Below, piece after piece: positions 7,568-51,946 of a stretch of 64,000 nt of DNA (its first letter is position 1; the number at the start of each line of letters is the position of its first letter). The DNA is taken from the NCBI GenBank assembly GCA_040289475.1, contig PSLF01000008.1, positions 21,224 to 85,223 on the forward strand, written 5' to 3'. A model generated the notes under the pieces. The model was given only the letters and a program-made list of their open reading frames with translations. It was not told the DNA's origin and searched no databases. This stretch comes from Acidimicrobiia bacterium (lineage in GTDB: Bacteria > Actinomycetota > Acidimicrobiia > ATN3 > PSLF01). The position numbers were made by a program, and so were the translations under genes.

Positions 7568-8881
7568 ATGGCACTTCAGGGAAGCCTGGATGATTTTGCC
7601 CTAGACGCCGTTTTTGATCTAGTAGCGAGAGCGCAGAACAGCGGGGCTCTTCACTTGAGAGGAGCCGGTAAAAAGGGTCGTGGGGCGGTCTACTTTCAAA
7701 AGGGAGAGATTTACTACGCCTACTCCAAGGGCAGTGACAATCTCGGTAATGCTTTGGTCAGGTCTGGTCTCGTTACGGCAAACGACTGGAAAGCTGCGAC
7801 AGCACAGGCGGGCGCCAAGCGTTCTATCGGTGAAATCCTGATTAGCAAGGGCGTAGATCGCACTAGGCTCGAGGACTTTCTTCGCGAGCGGATAGAAGAG
7901 GCAGTCTTCGATTTGTTCCGATGGGAGCAGGGTCGCTTCGATTTTCGCAAGGGGGAGACACACGCTATAGGTCCTGTAGTGACCCTCGAAGTAGATCCCC
8001 TTATTCAAGAAGCGCAACGCAAACTTGACGAGTGGGAAACTATCAAAGAAGCGATTCCTTCTGTCGAGGTCATCGTCCGTTTGGTGCGCGACCTCCCGGA
8101 GGAACAACTCGAGGTCAACCTCACGCGGGAGGACTGGCGCGTCATCGCTTGCATAGATGGACAACGGCGGGTGGTGGACGTCGCCGAAGCCTTGGGTGAG
8201 GGCGAGTTCAAGGTGTGTCAAGTGCTCCACAATTTGGTGACAGGTGGATTGGTCGAGGTTATTGAATCCGCTGCTAGCGAAGAAGAGTACGGAGAAGAGG
8301 AAGTAGAAGAACTCGAAGCAGAAGAGGCCGAGGAGTACGAGGAAGAAGAGGAGTACGAAGAAGAGGAGGAGGAGGAAGAAGAAGAGGAAGAGGGGATTGC
8401 GCTCGAAGGTATTTCGCTGAAGGAAGCGGCCGAGGCGCTCACGGTCGAAGAAAGCTCCGAGGAGAGCTTTGTTGGGGCTGGGTCGGCTTTCGAATCACTG
8501 AAGGCCGACACTGCAAACGACGATGGGAGCAGCCTCTTAGATGACCTTCTGGGCTTTGGTGACGAAGGGCGCCGAGGTGCATCCCCGCAGGCGTCTGCTT
8601 CTGGGAGTGGTCCGAGGAGGAGGCTCGATACCGGGGCCATCGCGGAGGAGTTCAGTCAACTTTGGTCTGGAGAGGATGCCCCCTCTGGTGGTGGTCCCCG
8701 AAACGAAGCACCCAAGTCCCCCAGACTGCGCTCGAGAGCTAGAGGCGGTGCCGAGCCTGCTATCGAGGTGCCCGAGGAGCTAGAGTCGGATCAGAGCGAG
8801 AATGCTCAGCCAGGCATCAAATCTGCTGGGGTAAACAAAGCTTTGATTATGCGCCTTATCCACGGGGTGCGGGAGTTGTAG
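7568..8881 (+). CDS. DUF4388 (PATAN-type) domain protein with long acidic Glu-rich linker and disordered C-terminus
   Basis: N-terminal GSLDDFALDAVFDLVARAQNSGALHLRG ... GAVYFQKGEIYYAYS is the DUF4388/PATAN signature; followed by EEEYEEEEEEEEE low-complexity tract. Confidence 0.75.
   Translation: MALQGSLDDFALDAVFDLVARAQNSGALHLRGAGKKGRGAVYFQKGEIYYAYSKGSDNLGNALVRSGLVTANDWKAATAQAGAKRSIGEILISKGVDRTRLEDFLRERIEEAVFDLFRWEQGRFDFRKGETHAIGPVVTLEVDPLIQEAQRKLDEWETIKEAIPSVEVIVRLVRDLPEEQLEVNLTREDWRVIACIDGQRRVVDVAEALGEGEFKVCQVLHNLVTGGLVEVIESAASEEEYGEEEVEELEAEEAEEYEEEEEYEEEEEEEEEEEEGIALEGISLKEAAEALTVEESSEESFVGAGSAFESLKADTANDDGSSLLDDLLGFGDEGRRGASPQASASGSGPRRRLDTGAIAEEFSQLWSGEDAPSGGGPRNEAPKSPRLRSRARGGAEPAIEVPEELESDQSENAQPGIKSAGVNKALIMRLIHGVREL
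8278..8392 (+). repeat. GAA/GAG-rich simple-sequence tract encoding a poly-Glu linker
   Basis: gaagaagaggag... run encoding EEYEEEEEYEEEEEEEEEEEE inside the PATAN gene. Confidence 0.8.
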
Positions 8882-8884
8882 GAA

Positions 8885-9472
8885 ATGTCACGGAGCACCG
8901 GTGGAGCCACCTCCGTCAAGGTGGTGGTCACCGGGCCCTTTGCGGCCGGCAAGACTACCTTTATCAGTACTCTCTCAGAGGTTCCTCTTTTCTCGACTGA
9001 GAAGCCTGTGACGGACGAGTCTCGGTCGGTGAAGTCAATGACCACTGTGTCGATGGACTTCGGCAAGATCACTTTCGACTTTGACGAGGGCGACATAGTC
9101 CTCTACCTCTTTGGGACTCCAGGGCAAGAACGTTTCGATTTCATGTGGGATGTTCTGGCCCGCGGAATGTTGGGCTTTGTGGTACTCGTCGATGTGACAC
9201 GCGAGAACACGTACCCGGAGGCGAAGAAGATTGTCAAGTACTTCACCGAGCTCTCCGACGTTCCCTATGTAATAGGTGCAAATCGAGCAACGGGAAATGC
9301 CAAGGCAGTATCGCGTTTGAAGAAGAAGCTGGGCGTAAGTGACGACATTCCAGTTGTACCCTGCGAGGTGGTTAGCCGCCAAAGCGCAAAAGAGGTTCTT
9401 CTTGCGCTCCTTTATAGGGTGAGCGAGTTGTTGGATCGACAGCGGGCGATAGGGGCGTCGTCACCTCGGTAG
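8885..9472 (+). CDS. Small Ras-like GTPase (MglA/CvnD-type ATP/GTP-binding protein)
   Basis: P-loop GPFAAGKTT, switch II FGTPGQERF, NKxD-like VIGANRA; begins 4 nt after the PATAN gene. Confidence 0.85.
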   Translation: MSRSTGGATSVKVVVTGPFAAGKTTFISTLSEVPLFSTEKPVTDESRSVKSMTTVSMDFGKITFDFDEGDIVLYLFGTPGQERFDFMWDVLARGMLGFVVLVDVTRENTYPEAKKIVKYFTELSDVPYVIGANRATGNAKAVSRLKKKLGVSDDIPVVPCEVVSRQSAKEVLLALLYRVSELLDRQRAIGASSPR

Positions 9473-11084: not shown

Positions 11085-12755
11085 GTGGCAGAAGAAGATG
11101 TCACTAGCTTCGGGATGCTTCTTGTCGAAGAGGGAATAATAGACGAGTCTCAGCTCGACGAAGTTTTGGCTGAGTACGAGGAGACAGGAAAACCTATCGG
11201 CCGCATCCTGATCGAAAAGGGGTTTCTTACCGAGGAAGACCTTCTGGCGGTTCTCGCCGATCAAGCAGGATTTGAGTTCGTAGACCTGAGTGAACACCCT
11301 GTAGATCCATCCGCAGCTGCCTTGATCCCTGACTCAATTTGCCGTCGTTATGGCCTTATCGCTATCGGATTCAACGGCGACAAGCTGGTTGTCGCCATGT
11401 CCGATCCTCAAAACGTCATTGCCCGCGATGACGTGAAGTCTATTTCCGGCAGAGACATCGAGATTGTTGTAGCCGCGCCCGGGGCAATTCTCGAGGCTTT
11501 GGACCGGATCTCGAGACTCGACACGGACATTGAGGCCTTCGCTGGCGAGCAAGAAGTTGAAGAAGATCTTTCGAAGCTGAAGGAGATAAGCGAGGACGCC
11601 CCCGCCGTCCGCTTCGTCAACATGGTGATTTCCCAGGCTGTCCAAGACAGGGCATCCGACATTCATGTCGAACCGCAAAACCGTGACGTGGTCATCCGGT
11701 ATCGCATAGATGGCGTCCTTAAAGAACACATGAGAAGCGGCAAGTCAATCCATCCAGCCATCATCAGCCGCTTGAAAATAATGGCGGACATGGATATCGC
11801 AGAGCACCGAATCCCCCAGGACGGACGCATTTCTATGAAGATTATGGGCCGAGAGATAGACATGCGCTGTTCGTGTGTGCCCACAGTGTGGGGGGAAAAG
11901 TTCGTGATGCGAATTCTTGACAAGCAAGCGGGCATTGTTTCTCTCGACAAGCTAGGTCTGCTTGAAGAAAATGCACGCAAGCTCCAGGCCGCTTATACAA
12001 AACCGTACGGGGCGATCTTTTGCTCGGGACCTACGGGCTCGGGAAAGACGACGACTTTGTACTCGATCCTCAAGGTGATCGCTTCTCCTGATAAAAACAC
12101 GGTCACTGTCGAGGACCCTGTCGAGTACAAGATTCCAGGCTTGAACCAGGTTCAAGTGAACGCGAAGGCCGGGCTTACGTTCGCCAATGCGCTGAGAGGA
12201 ATCGTACGAGGTGACCCCGACATCATCATGGTGGGCGAGATCCGAGACTTGGAGACCGCTCACATCGCCGTAGAGTCGGCTTTGACCGGCCACCTAGTGC
12301 TTTCGAGTATCCACACCAACGACGCGCCCTCTACCCCTGCTCGGCTCGTCGAGATGGGAGTGGAGCCCTACTTGGTAGGGTCGGCGCTGGACTGCGTGGT
12401 CTCCCAGCGCCTTGCCCGGCGCTTGTGCGAGCGCTGTAAGGAGCCGTACCAGCCGACCGAAGAGATGCTGGTTAACATAGGTTGGCCCCTCGAGGAGGAG
12501 CGGGAATTGCCCGTGCTCTATAAAGCGGTCGGATGCGGACACTGTTCGAAGACTGGATACAGAGGGCGAATTGCTCTCCATGAGATCATGTTAGTTACCG
12601 AAGAAATTGAGAGAATGGTTGTCGAGCGCAGGACTTCCGAGGAGATTAAGAAAGTCGCAGTGATGGAGGGGATGAAGCCCCTCCGACTCGACGGATTGGC
12701 CAAAGTACGGATGGGCATAACCACTCTTGACGAGGTCATGAGGGTAGTGGTCTAG
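11085..12755 (+). CDS. pilB: Type IV pilus assembly ATPase PilB (GspE family) with N-terminal T2SSE_N/MshEN-like domain
   Basis: Walker A GPTGSGKTT, Asp/His boxes, tetracysteine CERC...CGHC; N-terminal repeated LLVEEGIIDESQLDEVL / ILIEKGFLTEEDLLAVLADQ motifs. Confidence 0.93.
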   Translation: MAEEDVTSFGMLLVEEGIIDESQLDEVLAEYEETGKPIGRILIEKGFLTEEDLLAVLADQAGFEFVDLSEHPVDPSAAALIPDSICRRYGLIAIGFNGDKLVVAMSDPQNVIARDDVKSISGRDIEIVVAAPGAILEALDRISRLDTDIEAFAGEQEVEEDLSKLKEISEDAPAVRFVNMVISQAVQDRASDIHVEPQNRDVVIRYRIDGVLKEHMRSGKSIHPAIISRLKIMADMDIAEHRIPQDGRISMKIMGREIDMRCSCVPTVWGEKFVMRILDKQAGIVSLDKLGLLEENARKLQAAYTKPYGAIFCSGPTGSGKTTTLYSILKVIASPDKNTVTVEDPVEYKIPGLNQVQVNAKAGLTFANALRGIVRGDPDIIMVGEIRDLETAHIAVESALTGHLVLSSIHTNDAPSTPARLVEMGVEPYLVGSALDCVVSQRLARRLCERCKEPYQPTEEMLVNIGWPLEEERELPVLYKAVGCGHCSKTGYRGRIALHEIMLVTEEIERMVVERRTSEEIKKVAVMEGMKPLRLDGLAKVRMGITTLDEVMRVVV

Positions 12756-17703: not shown

Positions 17704-17931
17704 TTGACTCGAAGCGAGTGGGTTTTGTCAAGAGCAGAAGTACCACCAAAGGTCGAGTTACTGACCGTGCGGGAGGTCGCAGGGCTCACCCGGGTCTCGA
17801 CCATGACGGTGTATCGGCTAATCAAACGGGGAGAGCTTCCGGCGGTGAGAGTAGGTCGCTCTTACAGAATTCGGAGGCAAGATTTGATCCGCTATTTGCT
17901 TAGCTCTTCTACCGCAGAGGAGAGGTCGTAG
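17704..17931 (+). CDS. Helix-turn-helix DNA-binding protein (excisionase/MerR-like HTH_17 family)
   Basis: LLTVREVAGLTRVSTMTVYRLIKRGELPAVRVGRSYRIRRQDL is a typical HTH_17 motif; stop overlaps the pilM start; true start probably internal (VELLTVREV). Confidence 0.7.
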   Translation: MTRSEWVLSRAEVPPKVELLTVREVAGLTRVSTMTVYRLIKRGELPAVRVGRSYRIRRQDLIRYLLSSSTAEERS

Positions 17932-18992
17932 TGCCAAAGACTGTTGTCGGCCTTGATATCGGCACCTCGTCGGTGAGGGGTGTCGAGATACGCATCGGAA
18001 AAGACCGCCCCGTGTTGGTACGCATAGCTCAGCAAGAGATGGCTCCCGGATCGACTCGTGAGGGTGAAATTGTCAATCCGCCTGCAGTCGGAGACGCAAT
18101 CTCGAGGTTGTGGAAGTCGGGAAAGTTCAAAGGCAAGGACGCTGTCGTAGTCGGGGTGGCCAACGCGAAAGTAGTGGTGCGTCAAGTCGAGTTGCAGTGG
18201 ATGCCAGAAGAGGAGTTGCGCAACGCCTTGGCGTTCCAAATCCAAGAGTTCATTCCCATTCCGTTAGAGGAAGCGATCATTGACTACATGCCGGTAGAAG
18301 AGGTGTATCCAGGCGAGGGGCAGCGCCTCTTACGGATTTTAGTAGTAGCTGCTCAAAAAGAGATGATCCAGTCATTGATAGAGACGTTGCAGTATGCAAA
18401 GCTTCAACCTGCCGTCATAGACCTAAACGCGCTGGCTCTAATGAGGTCTCTGGTGAGCATGTACGGACTTGAAGAGCCACCGCCCGCCGAGGCACTCGTC
18501 GACATTGGCGCAGGCATTACGAACGTTGTAGTACACGAGCAAACCAAACCCCGCTTCGTGAGAATCATCGCCGGCGGGGGCGACGACTTTACTGCAGCAA
18601 TCTCCGAGCAGCTGGGCGTAGATCCAATCAGTGCAGAGCAGATCAAAAGAGAGATAGGTGCTTCGGGGTCTGCTCCTCCTGGCTACGATCGCGCGATGGA
18701 CGTGATCGAAGAAAAAACGGCCTCTTTTGTTGACGAGATTCGCGGATCCCTCGACTTTTATATGGCCCAGCCCGATGCCCAGCCGATCTCTCGAGTTGTC
18801 CTCTCTGGAGGAGGCTCGCAGCTTAGGACGATTCCAGATCGGTTACGCTCCGCCTTAGGGATCCCTGTCGAACAGGGGCATCCTCTTCAGTACGTTGAGC
18901 TTGCCGATCTTGGCATGCACCCTGAGCAGTTGGCCTCGATAGAGCCTTATCTGGCAGTTCCTGTAGGTCTGGCCTTGAGCGAGGCGGTCTGA
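17931..18992 (+). CDS. pilM: Type IV pilus assembly protein PilM (actin-like ATPase fold)
   Basis: VVGLDIGTSSVRGVEI N-terminus, 353 aa. Confidence 0.88.
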   Translation: MPKTVVGLDIGTSSVRGVEIRIGKDRPVLVRIAQQEMAPGSTREGEIVNPPAVGDAISRLWKSGKFKGKDAVVVGVANAKVVVRQVELQWMPEEELRNALAFQIQEFIPIPLEEAIIDYMPVEEVYPGEGQRLLRILVVAAQKEMIQSLIETLQYAKLQPAVIDLNALALMRSLVSMYGLEEPPPAEALVDIGAGITNVVVHEQTKPRFVRIIAGGGDDFTAAISEQLGVDPISAEQIKREIGASGSAPPGYDRAMDVIEEKTASFVDEIRGSLDFYMAQPDAQPISRVVLSGGGSQLRTIPDRLRSALGIPVEQGHPLQYVELADLGMHPEQLASIEPYLAVPVGLALSEAV

Positions 18993-26566: not shown

Positions 26567-27136
26567 TTGATATCGACCAACGACATCAGAACCGGAATGG
26601 CGCTGGATCTGCCGGAGGGGTTATTTGAGATCGTCGAATTCCAGCATGTAAAGCCCGGAAAGGGTCACGCGTTCGTCAGGATGAAACTAAAAAACCTTCT
26701 GACCGGGGCTGTTTTGGACAAGACCTTCCGAGCGGACGAAAAGGTCCCCTTGGCCGTCATCGACAAAAAGGAGATGCAGTTTTTGTACCGCGATGGGAAC
26801 GCCTTGGTATTCATGGACAACGACACATACGACCAGCACAATTTTTCTCTGGAAGTGCCTGAGGTTGAGAAGGCCTCGGAGTTCTTGTCAGAGGGAGAGT
26901 CGGTTCTAGTCCACTTTCATGGCGAGCGTCTCATCAAAATAGAGCTTCCGCCCAGCGTTGTCCTGGAAGTAGTAGAGACGGAGCCAGGAGTAAAAGGCGA
27001 CCGGGTCTCTGGAGGAACAAAACCTGCCAAGCTTCACACGGGTCTCGTCGTCCAAGTGCCGCTTTTCATAGAGGAGGGGGACCGCATAAAAGTCGACACA
27101 CGAACGGGAGAGTACCTGACTAGGGAACAGGGTTAG
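26567..27136 (+). CDS. efp: Elongation factor P
   Basis: ISTNDIRTGMALDLPEGLFEIVEFQHVKPGKGHAFVRMKLKNL canonical EF-P. Confidence 0.95.
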   Translation: MISTNDIRTGMALDLPEGLFEIVEFQHVKPGKGHAFVRMKLKNLLTGAVLDKTFRADEKVPLAVIDKKEMQFLYRDGNALVFMDNDTYDQHNFSLEVPEVEKASEFLSEGESVLVHFHGERLIKIELPPSVVLEVVETEPGVKGDRVSGGTKPAKLHTGLVVQVPLFIEEGDRIKVDTRTGEYLTREQG

Positions 27137-27143
27137 CGGCGCG

Positions 27144-28799
27144 GTGAGGCGCCACAAGGCCAGGCGGCAAGCTCTTCAACTTCTCTATCAGACCGAGATC
27201 ACGGGGCGTGATATCGAGGATGTGATTTCGGAGAGCCTCTCTTCAGGCGGGATGGAACCTTTTGCGCTTTTTTTAGCCAGGGGGGTTGCCCAGCGTCTAC
27301 AGCGGATAGACGAGATAATCTCGGAGTTCGCTTCCGGATGGCAGCCCGAGACCATGCCCACCGTTGATTTGATAATTCAGCGCATTGGCGTCTTCGAGCT
27401 CGTCTTTACAGATTCTCCTTCGCCTGTAGCCATAGACGAGGCGGTCGAACTTGCCAAGGAGTATTCCACGGAAGATGCAGCCCGTTTCGTAAACGGTGTT
27501 CTCGACTCGGTGGCTGCCGAGCGCCAGAGGCTTCTTCGAGGAGAACAGCGGCTGTCTGTGTCAGAAATGTTTGTACTGCCCCCCGCACTCGGCGACGGCT
27601 CTACCAAGGAGGCTTTCCCTGCGGATTTGTGTCCGCCTGCTTACGGGAGTCGCTCCTTGGCAGAGGTCGGAAGCTGGATCCTTGCCGCTATGGGCGTTGG
27701 AGATTGGGACGAAGATACATACGAGCTTCCCATCCCGCCGTCTCTGCGGCGCCTTGTCGTGTTCGTAATCGATGGGCTGGGGGCCATTCAGTTGAGAGAG
27801 CACCGTGATGTCCTATCGGACATATGGGAGCTGGCCGGAACTTTTGCAACCTCGACTTTCCCTTCTACAAGCGCCACGGGACTTACATCGATTTGCACCG
27901 CCTCAGTTCCCGCAATCCACGGCATCGTTGGCTACCGCCTACTCGAGAGGGGACGAAGTTTCAATGTGATTCGCTTTGCTTATGATCAGGACGCTGCCGA
28001 TGCGAAACTCGCTTTCTCGGGGATCGGTAGGCCTTTGAAGGCACCGGCTTTGCCATCTCCGAAGAAGTACCAGCCATGTAGGACGGTTTTCGAAATTATA
28101 GGGACAGCAAAGATAGGTGCTTACGTGATCACAAGGGACGAGTTCGAAGGCTCGGGGTTTTCCTCGCTATTGTTGCGCGGAGCAAGTTGGGCGTCCTATT
28201 CGCGGTCCTCGGAAATTCCCAATCGGGTTCGCAGCCTTCTGGAAGACCGGCGGCGCAAGCTTGTGTACGTGTACTGGGACGGGCTCGACAAAGAAGGACA
28301 CGCTGCGGGTCCTACGAGTCAGAGGTGGGCTGACGCTGCTGCCAAGGCCAACTCGCTGTGCGAAAAGATACTGGCGACCCTGAAGCCTGGTGATGGCATC
28401 CTGGTTACCTCGGATCACGGAATGATTTCAACCCCAGAGGAGTCCCGCATTGTAGCGGACAGAGATGTCAAGGATTTGTGCCGCGCGGTGGTCGGGGAGC
28501 CCAGAGTCCGGTATCTGCATGCTCGACCCGGATCAGAGGAGGCTCTATTCGAGGCAGCCTCGGAGCGTTTTGGCGACAGCGGTTTGGTGTTCAAACGGGA
28601 TAGAGCAATCTCTTTGGGCCTTTTCGGAGATGTGCCTTCTCCAGATGTCCAGAGTCGCATAGGAGATGTGATTGTCGCGATGCGGGGTGATTCGGTGTTG
28701 GTGGATCCCGATTGGCCGCAGGATCCTCCCCTTGGCAGTCACGGTTCTCTCACCGAAGGCGAGATGTTCGTTCCGTTCAGAGTTGCCGTTGGGGGATGA
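27144..28799 (+). CDS. nusB: Fusion protein: NusB antitermination factor (aa 1-135) + type I phosphodiesterase/nucleotide pyrophosphatase (alkaline-phosphatase superfamily) domain
   Basis: N-terminus RRQALQLLYQTEITG (NusB); C-terminal part has the NPP signature VFVIDGLG, TFPSTSATGLTSICTASVPAIHGIVGY and SDHGM; one uninterrupted 551-aa ORF. Confidence 0.8.
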   Translation: MRRHKARRQALQLLYQTEITGRDIEDVISESLSSGGMEPFALFLARGVAQRLQRIDEIISEFASGWQPETMPTVDLIIQRIGVFELVFTDSPSPVAIDEAVELAKEYSTEDAARFVNGVLDSVAAERQRLLRGEQRLSVSEMFVLPPALGDGSTKEAFPADLCPPAYGSRSLAEVGSWILAAMGVGDWDEDTYELPIPPSLRRLVVFVIDGLGAIQLREHRDVLSDIWELAGTFATSTFPSTSATGLTSICTASVPAIHGIVGYRLLERGRSFNVIRFAYDQDAADAKLAFSGIGRPLKAPALPSPKKYQPCRTVFEIIGTAKIGAYVITRDEFEGSGFSSLLLRGASWASYSRSSEIPNRVRSLLEDRRRKLVYVYWDGLDKEGHAAGPTSQRWADAAAKANSLCEKILATLKPGDGILVTSDHGMISTPEESRIVADRDVKDLCRAVVGEPRVRYLHARPGSEEALFEAASERFGDSGLVFKRDRAISLGLFGDVPSPDVQSRIGDVIVAMRGDSVLVDPDWPQDPPLGSHGSLTEGEMFVPFRVAVGG

Positions 28800-28860: not shown

Positions 28861-29178
28861 CTAGATCTTTCTTAGCCAAATCACCGGCTGGGAAGCGCGC
28901 ACTTTCGAACCCGGCTCTACAAGTGTTCTCTCGACAATACCGGTAAAACGACTCACTACTGTTTGGCACCCACGCCGTTGGATTATTCGCCCTACCACCT
29001 CCCCGCGGTAGACGACGGCTCCGGGACGAATGAACGCCGGGTCGAGGTTCAGCTTCCCGGAGCACGGAGCTACAACAACCGCGTCGTCGCCCAATGCCTT
29101 TAGGTCGCCTTCGTAGGTATCTAGCATCGATTGGGACACCGCGCCCTCCCAACAATTCGAGCAAAAACATATGAACAA
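28861..29178 (-). CDS. Hypothetical small protein with biotinyl/lipoyl-like hybrid-barrel motifs (no Lys attachment site)
   Basis: Minus-strand 105-aa ORF between nusB-fusion and pyrR; VVVAPCSGKL ... GIVERTLVEPGSKVRASQPVIWL resembles the two halves of a barrel-sandwich hybrid; Cys-rich N-terminus. Confidence 0.35.
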   Translation of the reverse strand: MFICFCSNCWEGAVSQSMLDTYEGDLKALGDDAVVVAPCSGKLNLDPAFIRPGAVVYRGEVVGRIIQRRGCQTVVSRFTGIVERTLVEPGSKVRASQPVIWLRKI

Positions 29179-29465
29179 CTCATGCGGCCCTCAGTTGGAC
29201 GAATAGGAAACAAGGACGGTTTCGGGTTTTTATGTGATGTTTGTCACCGAAGCAGTGTTCCGCAATTTTCGGCACGCTCTCAGTTGCCGTGCTCGAAAAA
29301 GTGGGGCGTTTTAGTTGTCTCAGACCTGCGCTACCTGGGGATATCCGTATGATTCTCGATTGTGAGTTCGACTGGTGGTATCGTGGTCCTGGCTCCTCGG
29401 GCCTTCTTTACGAGTTTGGACTGCTCCTTTAATGGCTCGTCCGGTGAGGCGAGAAAGGACGTGAG

Positions 29466-44019: not shown

Positions 44020-44511
44020 ATGGCAATTCTTCCAATAAGAAAGTATGGAGATCCAGTGCTGCGGCGAGTTGCATCTCGGGTTTCGCCAGGCGAGATAGGC
44101 CCCGAGCTTCGCAAGCTCGCAGACGACATGCTCGAGACAATGTACGACGCCCCTGGGGTAGGTCTGGCGGGCCCACAAGTCGGCGTGGAGAAACAGATAT
44201 TTGTTTTTGACATCGGATCTGGTCCCGGCGCTCTAATAAATCCCCGGATACTCAAGACGGAGGGAACCTGGGTCTATAACGAAGGATGCCTTTCGGTGCC
44301 GGGCCTGTGGTTCGAGATCGAGCGCCCTGGCTTTGTTGTCGCTACAGGTCTTGATTTGGACGGTAAGGAAATAACTGTTGAGGGCGACGAACTTCTCGGC
44401 CGGCTACTTCTTCACGAAACCGACCATTTAGAGGGCGTACTTCTCATCGACCGGCTTGACCGGGAGCGCCGAAAGGAGGCCCTAGCTGAGATCAGGCGAA
44501 GGCTTATGTAA
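44020..44511 (+). CDS. def: Peptide deformylase
   Basis: MAILPIRKYGDPVL start, GVGLAGPQVG, EGCLS, HETDHLEG motifs. Confidence 0.95.
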   Translation: MAILPIRKYGDPVLRRVASRVSPGEIGPELRKLADDMLETMYDAPGVGLAGPQVGVEKQIFVFDIGSGPGALINPRILKTEGTWVYNEGCLSVPGLWFEIERPGFVVATGLDLDGKEITVEGDELLGRLLLHETDHLEGVLLIDRLDRERRKEALAEIRRRLM

Positions 44512-45476
44512 TGTCTGGTAGGGCGCGCGTTGTGTTCTTCGGTTCTCCAACCTGTGCTGTGCCGTCATTGAGAGCTCTCTGCGAGTGGGGCGCGGACATC
44601 GTCTATGTCGTTACCCAACCAGCTCGCGGAAGAAAGAGAGGTCGCAGAGACATTCCCACCCCTGTAGCTTGCGAGGCTGCATCTCGAGGGATTCGGGTAC
44701 TTTCTCCGTCCAAAGTGAACCAAATTCTCCCCCAGATTCAGGAGTCTCGGTCAGATGCCGGCGTAATCGTCGCTTATGGCCAAATCATTCCCAAGGAAAT
44801 GATCGAGATATTTCGCAACGGGATACTCAATTTGCATTTTTCTCTGCTACCCAGGTGGAGAGGGGCGGCACCGGTCCAGCGGGCGATACTAGCCGGAGAT
44901 ACGACAACAGGCGTCTGCACAATGTTGATTGACGAAGGCCTTGATACGGGGCCCGTGCTCGAGTGTGAGGCCACGCAGATAGAGCCACGAGAGCGTGCGG
45001 GTGAGTTGGAAGCAAGGCTTGCCGAAATTGGAGCACGCCTTGTCATTCGTTCACTCGAGGCAATCTTGGAAGGGACGGCTCGACCTAAGCCACAGCCAGC
45101 GGATGGCGTGACTTACGCGCCTCCCCTAAAACGGGAGGAGTGTCAGATTGACTGGAGCAAAAGTGCCTTCGATATCGAAAGGCTAGTTCGGGCCGCACAC
45201 CCGAGCCCTTGCGCATTCACATACTTGAGGGGAAAGCTCATAAAAATCCACAGAGCTTTTGCGATTTCGGAAGCGTCACTGCCAGAGTGGGGGCGGCAAC
45301 CTGGCAAATCTCCCGGAGACGTGGTGGTCGATGAAAACGGCCAGCTGAGGGTGGTTTGCGGGGACGGCATCCTCGTTCTAGAGGAGGTTCAGCCCGAGGG
45401 AAAAAGGGTAATGTTGGCGAGAGAGTTCCTTCGGGGCGTGCGCATGAGTAACACTATTCGACTGGGCACATCATGA
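44511..45476 (+). CDS. fmt: Methionyl-tRNA formyltransferase
   Basis: 321 aa, formyltransferase N- and C-domains, ILNLHFSLLPRWRGAAPVQRAIL. Confidence 0.95.
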   Translation: MSGRARVVFFGSPTCAVPSLRALCEWGADIVYVVTQPARGRKRGRRDIPTPVACEAASRGIRVLSPSKVNQILPQIQESRSDAGVIVAYGQIIPKEMIEIFRNGILNLHFSLLPRWRGAAPVQRAILAGDTTTGVCTMLIDEGLDTGPVLECEATQIEPRERAGELEARLAEIGARLVIRSLEAILEGTARPKPQPADGVTYAPPLKREECQIDWSKSAFDIERLVRAAHPSPCAFTYLRGKLIKIHRAFAISEASLPEWGRQPGKSPGDVVVDENGQLRVVCGDGILVLEEVQPEGKRVMLAREFLRGVRMSNTIRLGTS

Positions 45477-45486
45477 TCTGTCTGCG

Positions 45487-46224
45487 ATGAAACCCAAGCT
45501 TGCCCCCTCGATACTTTCGGCTGATTTTTGGGCACTCGGGGATGCAATTGAGGCTGTCTCCGAACATGCCGACATGATTCATGTTGATGTCATGGACGGT
45601 TGTTTCGTACCTAACATCACCATGGGAAATGTCGTAATCGAGGCCATAAAGGCTCACAGCAATCTGTTCGTCGACTGTCATTTAATGGCGGTTAGGCCTG
45701 CCTCCCACTTCGATTCGCTTGCAGCCTCCGGAGCCGACTCGATCAGTTTTCACTATGAGGCGAGCGACGATCCGCGTAAAGACCTGAGCTCGCTGCGGAA
45801 GCTAGGTATTGGGGCATCCATTGCGATCAATCCATCCACATCTGAAGAGGTACTCATTACGTTGCTCGACTCGACCGACATGGTGGTAGTGATGTCTGTA
45901 AATCCGGGTTTCTCTGGTCAGAGGTTCATAGAGTCTGCCATCGATAAGATTAGGTGCATAAGACAGTGGCGGGAAGAAATGGGACTTGGTTTTGAGATCG
46001 AGGTGGACGGGGGGATAACAGCCGAGAACATTGAAAGAGCGGCAGAAGCGGGAGCCACGGTTTTTGTCTCCGCCAGCTCGATATTTGGGAGCAAGGATCC
46101 GGCGGGAGCTGCAGCAGAGCTGAAGCGGCTGGCATCTGTGGGGATGGCTCGGTGCCCCTTCGGAGCATCGTCGCCGCAAAAGGCGGTGGGTGCAGATAAT
46201 CTATTGTGGGGAAAAGAGCAATGA
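45487..46224 (+). CDS. rpe: Ribulose-phosphate 3-epimerase
   Basis: KLAPSILSADF, HVDVMDG motifs. Confidence 0.93.
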   Translation: MKPKLAPSILSADFWALGDAIEAVSEHADMIHVDVMDGCFVPNITMGNVVIEAIKAHSNLFVDCHLMAVRPASHFDSLAASGADSISFHYEASDDPRKDLSSLRKLGIGASIAINPSTSEEVLITLLDSTDMVVVMSVNPGFSGQRFIESAIDKIRCIRQWREEMGLGFEIEVDGGITAENIERAAEAGATVFVSASSIFGSKDPAGAAAELKRLASVGMARCPFGASSPQKAVGADNLLWGKEQ

Positions 46225-49919: not shown

Positions 49920-50501
49920 ATGCCGCCAGACAAATATGCTTCCAAGGGCCTCAAGAGAGCGGCTTATTTGTCGGAAACTGCGCGCAGGATGACCGCTGCT
50001 GACTGCGCGGGTATCCGTGTAGGAATAGTGGCGGCCAGATGGAACTTCCGAGTCACCGAGAAGCTGTTATATGGGGCTAGAGCCGCTCTAGCGAGCGTAG
50101 GTATTGACCTGAATGACCGGTCTAGATGCATCTTGGTATGGGTGCCTGGGGCATTCGAGATTCCGATAGCGGTTGCTAAGGTGATAGAGCTTGAGCGGGT
50201 TCATGCTGTCGTAGCTCTCGGATGCGTCGTAAGGGGAGATACTGACCACTACCACTACGTTGCCTCGGCTGCTTCCTATGGATTACAAGAGGTGTCTTTG
50301 AGAACAGGGGTGCCAGTGGCCTTCGGCGTTTTGACCACTTACGACATGGACCAGGCCTTGGCAAGAGCTGCTGACAGTGTCGAGTCCAATAAAGGCTTCG
50401 AGGCAGCTACGGCAGCGTTGGAGATGATCCTTACGTTGAGGGAACTCGGAGGGAGCGACTCTAAATCCATTTGGCGTCACCTAAGGTGCCACAGGACCTA
50501 A
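49920..50501 (+). CDS. ribH: 6,7-dimethyl-8-ribityllumazine synthase
   Basis: GIRVGIVAARWN ... VVALGCVVRGDTDHYHYV; an alternative start at ATG 49989 would give a more typical 171 aa. Confidence 0.9.
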   Translation: MPPDKYASKGLKRAAYLSETARRMTAADCAGIRVGIVAARWNFRVTEKLLYGARAALASVGIDLNDRSRCILVWVPGAFEIPIAVAKVIELERVHAVVALGCVVRGDTDHYHYVASAASYGLQEVSLRTGVPVAFGVLTTYDMDQALARAADSVESNKGFEAATAALEMILTLRELGGSDSKSIWRHLRCHRT

Positions 50502-51946
50502 GCGCCTCCGCCACGTCGATGAGGAGGAGGCGGAACTGGAGACTCCGCGGATGCTTGTACAACCTCGTGAGACCCTTCGCCTTCTGCGCTTTGCAAGCCG
50601 TCACTTCGTCGATCGGATCGGCTTCGGCCGTCCTTTCTCGCTCTCCGAGGCCGCGACGCGGTACCGCTTTCAGGCCGCGAGCGGGAAGACTCATCGGTAT
50701 CTAGCGAGTTCAACTGCTCTAGGAGATGGGGGGATGCGGCTGATATTTCGAGAGAAGGCATCCCTACTCCCGGCACATAGCTCTCGGCAACCGGGGCGTG
50801 CTCCACATCCGAAACTAATACGGGGCGGCCGACTCTCCCTCTTCCTGCTTCTTTCGCCTCGTAAAGACTAGTGTCCGCTGCCGCCATGACTGCGCTAGCT
50901 GTGGCGGCTCCTTTGCCCGGATAGCACCCGATTCCGATCGTGCAAGAGATGGGTATGTCCCCCCAACTTGTACGTACCGGTGTTTGCTTGAAGCACTCTA
51001 GGATTCGTGCTGCGACACGTTCAGCTACATCTGTTGTGGCAGCCTTGACTGCGGCGGCGAACTCGTCTCCGCCCATTCGTCCGACCAAATCACCTGTCCG
51101 AAGACAAGAGGCTATTCTCTCGGACGCGGCTCTCAGGACAGCATCTCCAGCCTGGTGTCCGTATGTGTCATTGATGTCCTTGAAATAGTCTAAGTCGATC
51201 TCTAGATAGCCGAGCCCCTGCCCCGCAGATCGGGCTTCCAAGAGCGCGTTTTCCAAAGCATCCTCGAAGTTGCGGCGGTTCATTACACGTGTAAGGTGGT
51301 CGAAGCTGGAAAGAAAGTTCATTTTGCGCATAGCGTCTTCCATGCGCTGGCGGGCTTCGCCTTCTGCAACGAGGAGTTTGAAGTTCATGTCGGCTACAGC
51401 CTGAACGAGGAAGCAAGTCCCTAAAAGTACAAGCATTTCAGCAATGAACTCTCGCCATTCTTTGGCGTTAGCAATCCCAAATCCCCGAGCCATCGCGCCT
51501 GCAACAACAAGCCCCAGTGTCACGGTAACCTGTGGTCCCGAAAGCGGGCGGAGAAGGATTCCTACAATAATTGTGTGAAACGCGGTAAACAGAACTGTCT
51601 GTTTGCCAAAGACCACGATCAACGCAAAGAAAAACGCCAAGGTAAAGTAGTGGATGTATGTGAGCGCGTAAAGGCGCGGAAGAGATATCACGCTGGATCT
51701 GGACGCTAGAAAAATAATGATCAAGCTTCCAACTAGCATGGAGCGGAGGACCCAAACCTTACTGGGATCCTGAATTGGCTGGAAGAGGTCGAGCAAGAAA
51801 GACGCAATGACCATCACTATCGAAATGCCGAGAGCCAGCTGGCTTCGGTAGCGCATGAGCTTTATGTGATCGGGGAATGCCTCTTCAGTGGGGAAGAGAC
51901 GTTCTCCGAGAGTCAGCTCTTCAGCAGTTTCCCAGGGTCTTGTCAT
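50498..51946 (-). CDS. Membrane-anchored diguanylate cyclase (GGDEF) with disordered C-terminal tail
   Basis: Only minus-strand gene; ~6 N-terminal TM helices, then GGDEF domain with intact RMGGDEF active site and RxxD-type region; convergent with ribH (4-nt overlap). Confidence 0.88.
   Translation of the reverse strand: MTRPWETAEELTLGERLFPTEEAFPDHIKLMRYRSQLALGISIVMVIASFLLDLFQPIQDPSKVWVLRSMLVGSLIIIFLASRSSVISLPRLYALTYIHYFTLAFFFALIVVFGKQTVLFTAFHTIIVGILLRPLSGPQVTVTLGLVVAGAMARGFGIANAKEWREFIAEMLVLLGTCFLVQAVADMNFKLLVAEGEARQRMEDAMRKMNFLSSFDHLTRVMNRRNFEDALENALLEARSAGQGLGYLEIDLDYFKDINDTYGHQAGDAVLRAASERIASCLRTGDLVGRMGGDEFAAAVKAATTDVAERVAARILECFKQTPVRTSWGDIPISCTIGIGCYPGKGAATASAVMAAADTSLYEAKEAGRGRVGRPVLVSDVEHAPVAESYVPGVGMPSLEISAASPHLLEQLNSLDTDESSRSRPESGTASRPRRARKDGRSRSDRRSDGLQSAEGEGSHEVVQASAESPVPPPPHRRGGGA

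Follow-up and report, generated by a model that had tools for sequence, protein, structure and literature searches.

Does the open reading frame (ORF) at positions 27144 to 28799 of this stretch of DNA encode a single two-part protein, and if it does, is the transcription factor at its front end connected in any functional way with the enzyme behind it? The stretch, referred to below as the window, is 64,000 nucleotides long and comes from an Acidimicrobiia bacterium of the Actinomycetota (GenBank assembly GCA_040289475.1, contig PSLF01000008.1, positions 21,224 to 85,223). An earlier note on its letters had read the ORF as an in-frame fusion of 551 aa between the antitermination factor NusB and a type I phosphodiesterase of the nucleotide pyrophosphatase/phosphodiesterase (NPP) kind. 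Both domains were found by Pfam, and NusB also by NCBIfam, and the fusion of NusB and phosphodiesterase (PDE) is confirmed as a real, conserved gene of an uncultured actinobacterial lineage. Its parts are the following.

27144..28799, + strand: the whole fused ORF, 551 aa, with GTG start and TGA stop, from the ORF list and the fused orthologues.
27144..27518, + strand: the complete NusB domain (aa 1-125), matched by PF01029 and TIGR01951, with the Arg-rich N-terminus RRHKARRQAL.
27519..27629, + strand: the linker (aa 126-162), variable in sequence and length and partly disordered.
27630..28796, + strand: the NPP-fold phosphodiesterase domain (aa 163-551), from PF01663, Foldseek and alignment with stand-alone homologues.
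27771..27773, + strand: D210, metal ligand (VIDGLG), invariant in 33/33 aligned family members.
27870..27872, + strand: S243, predicted nucleophile (FPSTSAT), Ser in the fusion clade only.
27990..28058, + strand: a clade-specific insertion (about aa 283-305), absent from the stand-alone homologues in the alignment.
28287..28301, + strand: D382...H386, metal ligands (WDGLDKEGH), invariant (33/33) and aligned by phmmer to D210/H214 of Xac NPP.
28413..28418, + strand: D424-H425, metal ligands (SDHGM), invariant (33/33); D424 corresponds to D269 of the cyclic di-AMP (c-di-AMP) phosphodiesterase AtaC.
28740..28742, + strand: H533, metal ligand (GSHGS), invariant (33/33).

The earlier note had proposed a search for the same fusion in related genomes, and fused orthologues were found in independent assemblies. 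One is P0001, a near-identical fused protein that differs by at least one residue and comes from another JGI contig, separate from this one. Five more are diverged orthologues (P0002-P0006), 543-551 aa long and 50-65% identical, each with both domains. A metagenome scan with an alignment of the PDE part only added two further fused loci, L092 (549 aa) and L094 (550 aa). Altogether the fused sequences number eight; they stem from different sequencing projects and different assemblers (JGI, Logan, NCBI/ENA whole-genome shotgun) and are 50-100% identical; leaving aside the near-identical copy, the fused relatives are 50-68% identical. One of the orthologues, P0006, seemed to be truncated at the N-terminus owing to the start that had been called, and an in-frame upstream GTG restores the Arg-rich N-terminus.

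The fused gene also keeps its place. In 5 of the 5 loci examined it directly follows the gene efp, and pyrR lies downstream in all three that extend that far. In the window, the efp gene is the following.

26567..27136, + strand: efp, directly upstream of the fusion with a 7-nt gap, in the same operon position in all fused loci.

The fusion ORF starts 7 nt past the efp stop (27136) and runs on without an internal stop. The genomes that carry it span 55.7-65.5% GC and their EF-P proteins are 80-81% identical; this spread in GC, together with an EF-P identity of about 80%, means that the fusion has persisted through substantial divergence. When the six fusions are aligned, NusB averages 55% identity and the PDE 61%, and the linker 21% (mean pairwise). 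Each half is complete and evolves under purifying selection. The linkers of the orthologues differ in length by whole-codon indels, and none of them contains a stop codon. Since the fused orthologues are independent and their linkers vary by whole codons without stops, an artefact is very unlikely. A separate PDE made from an internal start was also considered and set aside: the linker has a single Met, M142, and the orthologues do not conserve it.

The origin of the fusion was sought among relatives of its C-terminal domain. The closest stand-alone relative among the representative proteins is P0088, with 38.6% identity over 386 aa, and the next best is much lower. P0088 is encoded in locus L089 directly after a separate nusB gene of 145 aa, in the context pilO...aroC-aroK-aroB-aroQ-pepQ-efp-nusB-PDE-...-pyrR-pyrB-pyrC-carAB. 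There the TGA stop of nusB and the GTG start of the PDE gene overlap as GTGA, so a one-base indel would suffice to merge the two frames. The organism of L089 is a moderately close relative of the window's organism (EF-P 69% and PyrB 56% identical). When 44 domain sequences were placed in a neighbour-joining tree, the fusions formed a single clade in 100/100 replicates, and P0088 was the sister of that clade in 86/100. The P0088 locus and this grouping show that the PDE gene already stood behind nusB, and was translationally coupled to it, before the two fused. By gene order and tree, then, the fusion arose by merger of two adjacent, translationally coupled genes. The earlier note had taken a relative in which nusB is split from a separate downstream gene as grounds to doubt the fusion. 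Such a relative does exist in L089, and it shows where the fusion came from rather than that it is false.

A scan of GTDB species genomes with the full-length alignment returned mostly ordinary NusB proteins, and its sole yield among the matches listed was locus L009, with the order nusB, Rrf2 (- strand), PDE, bpa, dnaE. This locus was tried as a pre-fusion intermediate and rejected: its PDE joined the fusion clade in 0/100 bootstraps and groups with Acidimicrobiia-type genes of the order Rrf2-PDE-BPA-dnaE. Judging by the tree, the nusB gene beside the PDE block in L009 is an independent juxtaposition. Elsewhere the stand-alone gene sits in other contexts, namely lspA-rluD-(Rrf2, divergent)-PDE-BPA-dnaE on Acidimicrobiia-type contigs and parC-PDE-sepH in Microbacterium. 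On the Acidimicrobiia-type contigs a divergent gene for an Rrf2-family regulator repeatedly precedes the stand-alone AtaC-like genes (L004 5405-7044, L009 8415-10035, L091 1800-3546), and in L004-L007 and L009 the stand-alone PDE is followed by a BPA gene (PF10759) and dnaE. This suggests Rrf2 control of the AtaC-like enzyme in Acidimicrobiia-type lineages.

By sequence, predicted fold and position the N-terminal half looks like an ordinary NusB. PF01029 covers aa 4-124 (E 3e-29), and the NCBIfam equivalog model for nusB, TIGR01951, scores 117.6 bits against a cut-off of 88.35, matching aa 3-125 to model positions 2-129 of 131. Its best match in the PDB is Mycobacterium tuberculosis NusB (1EYV, E 6e-24), and it aligns with residues 6-131 of Escherichia coli NusB in the structures 5MS0, 6GOV and 6TQN of the antitermination complex. 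An AlphaFold2 model of the fused protein makes this half all-helical, with seven helices in aa 2-125 and a predicted local distance difference test score (pLDDT) of about 80-96. Tyr15 and Asp121 align with Tyr18 and Asp118 of E. coli NusB; the E. coli residues aligned with these two and with the Arg-rich N-terminus are known from nusB mutants to be important. L089 and L009 share with all fused loci the placement of nusB after efp. The fusion thus resembles the NusB proteins of E. coli and M. tuberculosis in its full-length fold, equivalog score, Arg-rich N-terminus and post-efp position, and differs from them by a C-terminal extension of 426 residues on what is canonically a protein of 130-160 aa. 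One database source labels the fused protein just "transcription antitermination factor NusB".

A tblastn search of the 64-kb window found no second NusB-like sequence. In Actinobacteria the gene rsmB/fmu, which carries another NusB-like domain, usually lies between fmt and rpe. In the window fmt (44511-45476) is directly followed by rpe (45487-46224), and rsmB/fmu is not at that position.

After NusB the model shows a short helix, then disorder at aa 144-155 (pLDDT <50), and from about aa 163 an alpha/beta domain. The model was built from 33 sequences and reached a pLDDT of 91.8 and a predicted TM-score (pTM) of 0.74, with only aa 144-155 disordered. A model from the six fusions alone reached a pLDDT of 67.7, with active-site loops below 50, and was not used. 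The earlier note proposed a profile search of the C-terminal part for the Phosphodiest family; PF01663 matches it at aa 204-535 (E 1e-23). The C-domain is the equivalent of an entire stand-alone protein, including the N-terminal segment CPPAYGxRSLAEVGxWILAA. When the domain was compared with the PDB by Foldseek, the Xac NPP entries 7N1S and 2GSN were nearest (E 8e-19 to 8e-18, TM(target) 0.65-0.67), followed by ENPP6, ENPP5, PhnA and ENPP1/3. A phmmer search gave 2GSN at E 1.6e-6, with the D...H and DHG motifs aligned. A PglZ/BREX-type identity was also tried and rejected, at 23.1 bits against a Pfam cut-off of 25 and covering just the DHG region that is common to the superfamily.

The catalytic motifs that the earlier note had quoted are all present and intact, and the six metal ligands D210, D382, H386, D424, H425 and H533 are invariant across the aligned family. 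The nucleophile was placed at S243 by gapless register with the Pfam/NPP motif P-x-x-T...TG..P..HG. At this position the six aligned fusions all have Ser, and the stand-alone relatives have Thr, in 27/27 of those aligned and 167/167 of those that could be scored. The split sister P0088 also keeps Thr, so the change from Thr to Ser coincides with the fusion and not with the move beside nusB. The position of the Asn that contacts the phosphoryl group in NPPs is taken by Tyr264, a Tyr common to 20 of the 27 stand-alone relatives. The clade-specific insertion amounts to about 20 residues, with a pLDDT of about 80 and a short helix at 284-292.

With Xac NPP and ENPP1-7 the domain shares the alpha/beta core, the six metal ligands and the motifs D-G-x-G, Y.x.D..GH..G and DHG, at a sequence identity of 14-20%. 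Those enzymes are secreted, periplasmic or ecto, with a Thr nucleophile and the phosphoryl-contacting Asn, whereas the fusion must be cytoplasmic, with Ser243 as predicted nucleophile and Tyr264 at the Asn position. The spacing from H to D is 43 in Xac NPP, by alignment and the known NPP numbering, and 38 in the fusion. The earlier note had deduced from the position behind NusB that the domain must be cytoplasmic. The placement stands, but it is nothing special, as the whole stand-alone family is without signal peptides.

A profile of the C-domain, run against 1.84 billion representative proteins, matched 2786 clusters at E<1e-30, nearly all of them 350-400 aa. The named stand-alone relatives are Actinomycetota (Microbacterium, Blastococcus, Actinocatenispora, Acidimicrobiales), and the stand-alone proteins start about 30 residues before the catalytic core. 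The studied enzyme that fits this description is AtaC of Streptomyces venezuelae (Vnz_27310), a c-di-AMP phosphodiesterase that Latoscha et al. 2020 found by a PF01663 search (PMC7132281). The AtaC enzyme is soluble, consists of one domain, is monomeric and Mn2+-dependent, and converts c-di-AMP to 5'-pApA and then to AMP (PMC7132281, PMC10117811). It is highly conserved in Actinobacteria and was modelled on PhnA, with a predicted active site of D68, T108, D227, H231, D269, H270 and H384, and its family is reported to be specific for c-di-AMP and pApA (PMC7132281).

The C-domain and AtaC are alike in several respects. Both are PF01663 NPP-type domains of about 390 aa, cytoplasmic and without signal peptide, and widespread in Actinobacteria; both have PhnA and NPP as their nearest structures; and both have a predicted two-metal site whose three Asp and three His come in one and the same order. 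The ligand spacings in the fusion are +4 and +38, and the 38 residues from H386 to D424 are identical to the distance from H231 to D269 in AtaC. Synteny points the same way. A Microbacterium homologue adjoins a DUF3071/sepH gene, and DUF3071 is the domain of SepH, whose gene in S. venezuelae is vnz_27360 while ataC is vnz_27310; the region of sepH is thus where both the stand-alone Microbacterium relative and the Streptomyces ataC gene are located. From architecture, active-site spacing, synteny and the published description, and not from direct alignment, the C-domain probably belongs to the AtaC family. The two differ in that the fusion domain sits behind NusB and AtaC is single-domain and monomeric, in the predicted nucleophile (Ser243 against Thr), and in the extra insertion of about 20 residues in the fusion. 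The fusion is about 30-39% identical to the stand-alone members that could be aligned, with AtaC itself compared by description. A fingerprint made from the published AtaC residue numbers found no exact match among the homologues, and searches seeded with the Microbacterium protein or an Actinomycetes-type profile returned just Microbacterium and Blastococcus-like proteins.

The surroundings of the fusion are housekeeping genes in an order typical of Actinomycetota. Upstream lie alaS, mltG, aroE, a type IV pilus cluster, aroC-aroK-aroB-aroQ, pepQ and efp; downstream follow pyrR-pyrB-pyrC-carA-carB-pyrD, gmk, coaBC, metK, priA, def, fmt, rpe, rib genes, pheST and arg genes. Between the fusion and pyrR lies one small gene on the other strand.

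28861..29178, - strand: a small convergent ORF of 105 aa between the fusion and pyrR, conserved in related loci.

This ORF is a constant neighbour of the nusB-PDE pair. It is 45-57% identical in L001, L003, L092 and L094. In L089, where nusB and the PDE gene are split, the figure is 38%, and there an ORF of 157 aa on the opposite strand had been called instead. Its matches are weak ones to Biotin_lipoyl and HlyD_3 (barrel-sandwich) alone, and it shows no evident Lys motif of the lipoyl or biotinyl kind.

A scan for promoters and terminators around the fusion gene gave nothing informative. The Rfam scan of the whole 64-kb window at gathering thresholds gave zero matches, tRNA included; neither a PyrR-binding attenuator upstream of pyrR (29179-29465) nor an FMN riboswitch upstream of ribD (46704) was among its results. 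Two other features of the window concern signalling and motility. Just upstream of the type IV pilus genes, at 7568-9472, lie a gene for a DUF4388 protein of 437 aa and, after it, one for a small Ras/MglA-like GTPase of 195 aa. The pilus genes include a PilB-type ATPase (11085-12755) and PilM (17931-18992), and the DUF4388-GTPase layout calls to mind motility polarity modules. On the opposite strand (50498-51946, - strand), a gene for a GGDEF diguanylate cyclase of 482 aa stands between the riboflavin genes and hisG, so the organism has c-di-GMP signalling; a c-di-AMP component was not seen in the window.

What, then, does the fused protein do? We think it probable that this is a genuine bifunctional protein made from merged adjacent genes, with a C-terminal half that is a c-di-AMP/pApA phosphodiesterase and two halves that are largely independent. 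The N-terminal half would do the ordinary NusB job of binding S10/NusE and BoxA RNA in rRNA antitermination, given its full equivalog match, its normal locus and its conserved Arg-rich N-terminus, Tyr15 and Asp121. The C-terminal half would be an active two-metal phosphodiesterase with Ser243 as its predicted nucleophile, and its most likely substrates, by analogy with AtaC, would be c-di-AMP and the product 5'-pApA. The main effect of the fusion would then be obligatory 1:1 co-expression with the growth-linked efp-nusB operon, and if the enzyme did gather at complexes that transcribe rRNA, that would be a side effect.

Several points weigh against this reading. The adjacency of the two genes, and then their fusion, were kept across considerable divergence, and the physical link could have been selected for function. 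AtaC membership rests on the published description, spacing and synteny, not on an aligned AtaC sequence. The nusB-linked clade is a separate deep branch, 28-39% identical to other family members. It has Ser for the otherwise universal Thr nucleophile as well as its own insertion of about 20 residues, and its substrate may differ. Finally, a diadenylate cyclase motif was not found in the 64-kb window, which is a small part of the genome.

Some of these points feed the rival that survives best, in which the fusion is the same and the substrate is another one: the C-terminal half would be a general cytoplasmic NPP acting on NTPs, dinucleoside polyphosphates, NAD or UDP-sugars, or a nanoRNA-degrading enzyme. 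We consider this unlikely. In its favour, the closest solved structures are broad-specificity NPPs, and the clade is just about 30-39% identical to the stand-alone members. The Ser nucleophile and the extra insertion would fit a changed substrate, as would the lack of a c-di-AMP synthesis gene in the 64-kb window. The gene also lies between nusB and pyrR-pyrB-pyrC-carAB, which may tie it to the nucleotide economy of the cell; on the other hand, its operon link is to nusB (the start/stop overlap), and pyrR is set apart from it by the convergent gene. The active site argues against a general NPP in two ways: Tyr264 is a feature of the actinobacterial family (20/27) and not of ecto-NPPs, and the 38-residue spacing matches AtaC rather than Xac NPP (43). 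The published family, moreover, is reported to be specific for c-di-AMP and pApA (PMC7132281).

A second rival gives the link itself a function. NusB would bring the PDE to BoxA RNA or the antitermination complex, where it would act locally or serve as a structural accessory in the manner of SuhB; possible local targets would be pApA or other nanoRNAs, RNA 5' ends, or a second messenger near RNA polymerase. The earlier note had proposed tethering of this kind, with action on RNA or messengers, and we found no support for it beyond the fusion itself. We regard a functional tether as improbable. Some observations do speak for it: the association of nusB with the PDE predates the fusion, as the overlapping genes of L089 show; the fusion has been retained throughout a clade whose proteins are only about 50% identical; and the Thr-to-Ser change and the insertion coincide exactly with the nusB-linked or fused clade, a hint of a changed role. 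Against it, the linker is predicted to be flexible as well as unconserved, no conserved interface could be shown, and operon adjacency alone explains why the two halves occur together.

Precedents for such a tether exist in RsmB and in SuhB. In RsmB an N-terminal NusB-like domain targets the enzyme to rRNA. The fusion resembles RsmB/Sun in having an N-terminal RNA-binding module of NusB fold followed by a catalytic domain, and RsmB models weakly match its NusB domain, at 16-40 bits against cut-offs of 269-540 and over the NusB part only. It differs in that its N-domain is a bona fide NusB equivalog at the nusB locus, its enzyme is a phosphodiesterase and not a methyltransferase, and the fusion is recent and found in one clade. 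SuhB, an inositol monophosphatase, is an integral subunit of the antitermination complex rrnTAC in E. coli (PMC6614797, PMC4807359). As the fusion might, it puts a phosphatase-type fold in physical association with NusB/NusE-containing complexes (PMC6614797, PMC4807359, PMC6614801). SuhB, however, has the unrelated inositol monophosphatase fold, is a separate polypeptide and has a structural role. The full set of catalytic residues in the fusion argues against a purely structural, SuhB-like role.

The databases hold other C-terminal fusions of NusB, which bear on the same question. These are NusB-CarA, NusB-S-adenosylmethionine (SAM) methyltransferase and NusB-HAD hydrolase (P0034-P0050, P0041, P0048). 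The NusB-CarA type (carbamoyl-phosphate synthase small chain plus glutamine amidotransferase) makes up about 17 clusters, some on contigs longer than 1 Mb. Like the NusB-PDE protein, they join an N-terminal NusB to the product of a downstream gene, and they are rare and restricted to certain lineages; they differ from it in their partners, and NusB-PDE has a demonstrable split state that resembles its ancestor. The partner in these other fusions may be whichever gene lies downstream. That such rare architectures exist suggests that NusB tolerates C-terminal passengers, and the fact that, in other lineages, the downstream genes joined to nusB have no metabolic relation to it counts against a functional tether. 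Because of these unrelated partners, and because the linker is unconserved (21%), an opportunistic fusion of adjacent genes is favoured. No paper describing the CarA, methyltransferase or HAD fusions was found in the literature searched. The same literature has no paper on a NusB-NPP fusion, in agreement with the earlier note, and none linking NusB with AtaC, c-di-AMP or an NPP-type enzyme.

A further version of a functional link is that NusB delivers the PDE to BoxA RNA and the rRNA antitermination complex, where beside RNA polymerase it would clear c-di-AMP, pApA or other nanoRNAs or work on RNA 5' ends, or that nucleotide binding by the enzyme half gates the entry of NusB into that complex, and we give this little chance. 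The turnover of a second messenger or of nanoRNA would in that case be coupled directly to rRNA synthesis, and the Thr-to-Ser change and the clade insertion would mark an altered substrate or role.

The weakest rival, an assembly join, sequencing frameshift or gene-calling error that merged nusB with a separate downstream gene, can be dismissed as extremely unlikely: the separate genes of L089 do lie in different frames with a 4-nt overlap, where a single-base error would mimic a fusion, and two other "NusB fusions" (P0051, P0053) carry partial domains and look like frameshift products, but the eight fused sequences from different projects and assemblers keep one frame across a linker that varies by whole codons and that, at about 35 residues, is longer than a short read-through, and the ORF has no in-frame stop.

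The preferred reading, a bifunctional protein with largely independent halves, makes the locus a new combination and not a new kind of system: the parts are known, and what is new is the NusB-PDE architecture, which is limited to one small clade of uncultured organisms. If the halves act side by side, it is a datable fusion of adjacent genes, with the split (GTGA) and fused states surviving in sister lineages. The fusion shows that the C-terminus of NusB tolerates a passenger of 45 kDa, and it would extend the AtaC-like family to a deep, uncultured actinobacterial branch with a natural variant whose predicted nucleophile is Ser. The hypothesis is cheap to test, as both halves have established assays. 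Opportunistic operon fusion is the default reading, and the fusion is a testable Rosetta-stone hint. If the tether matters, the protein would be the first direct physical link between the turnover of cyclic dinucleotides or nanoRNA and the rRNA antitermination machinery, and a natural analogue of SuhB in the antitermination complex.

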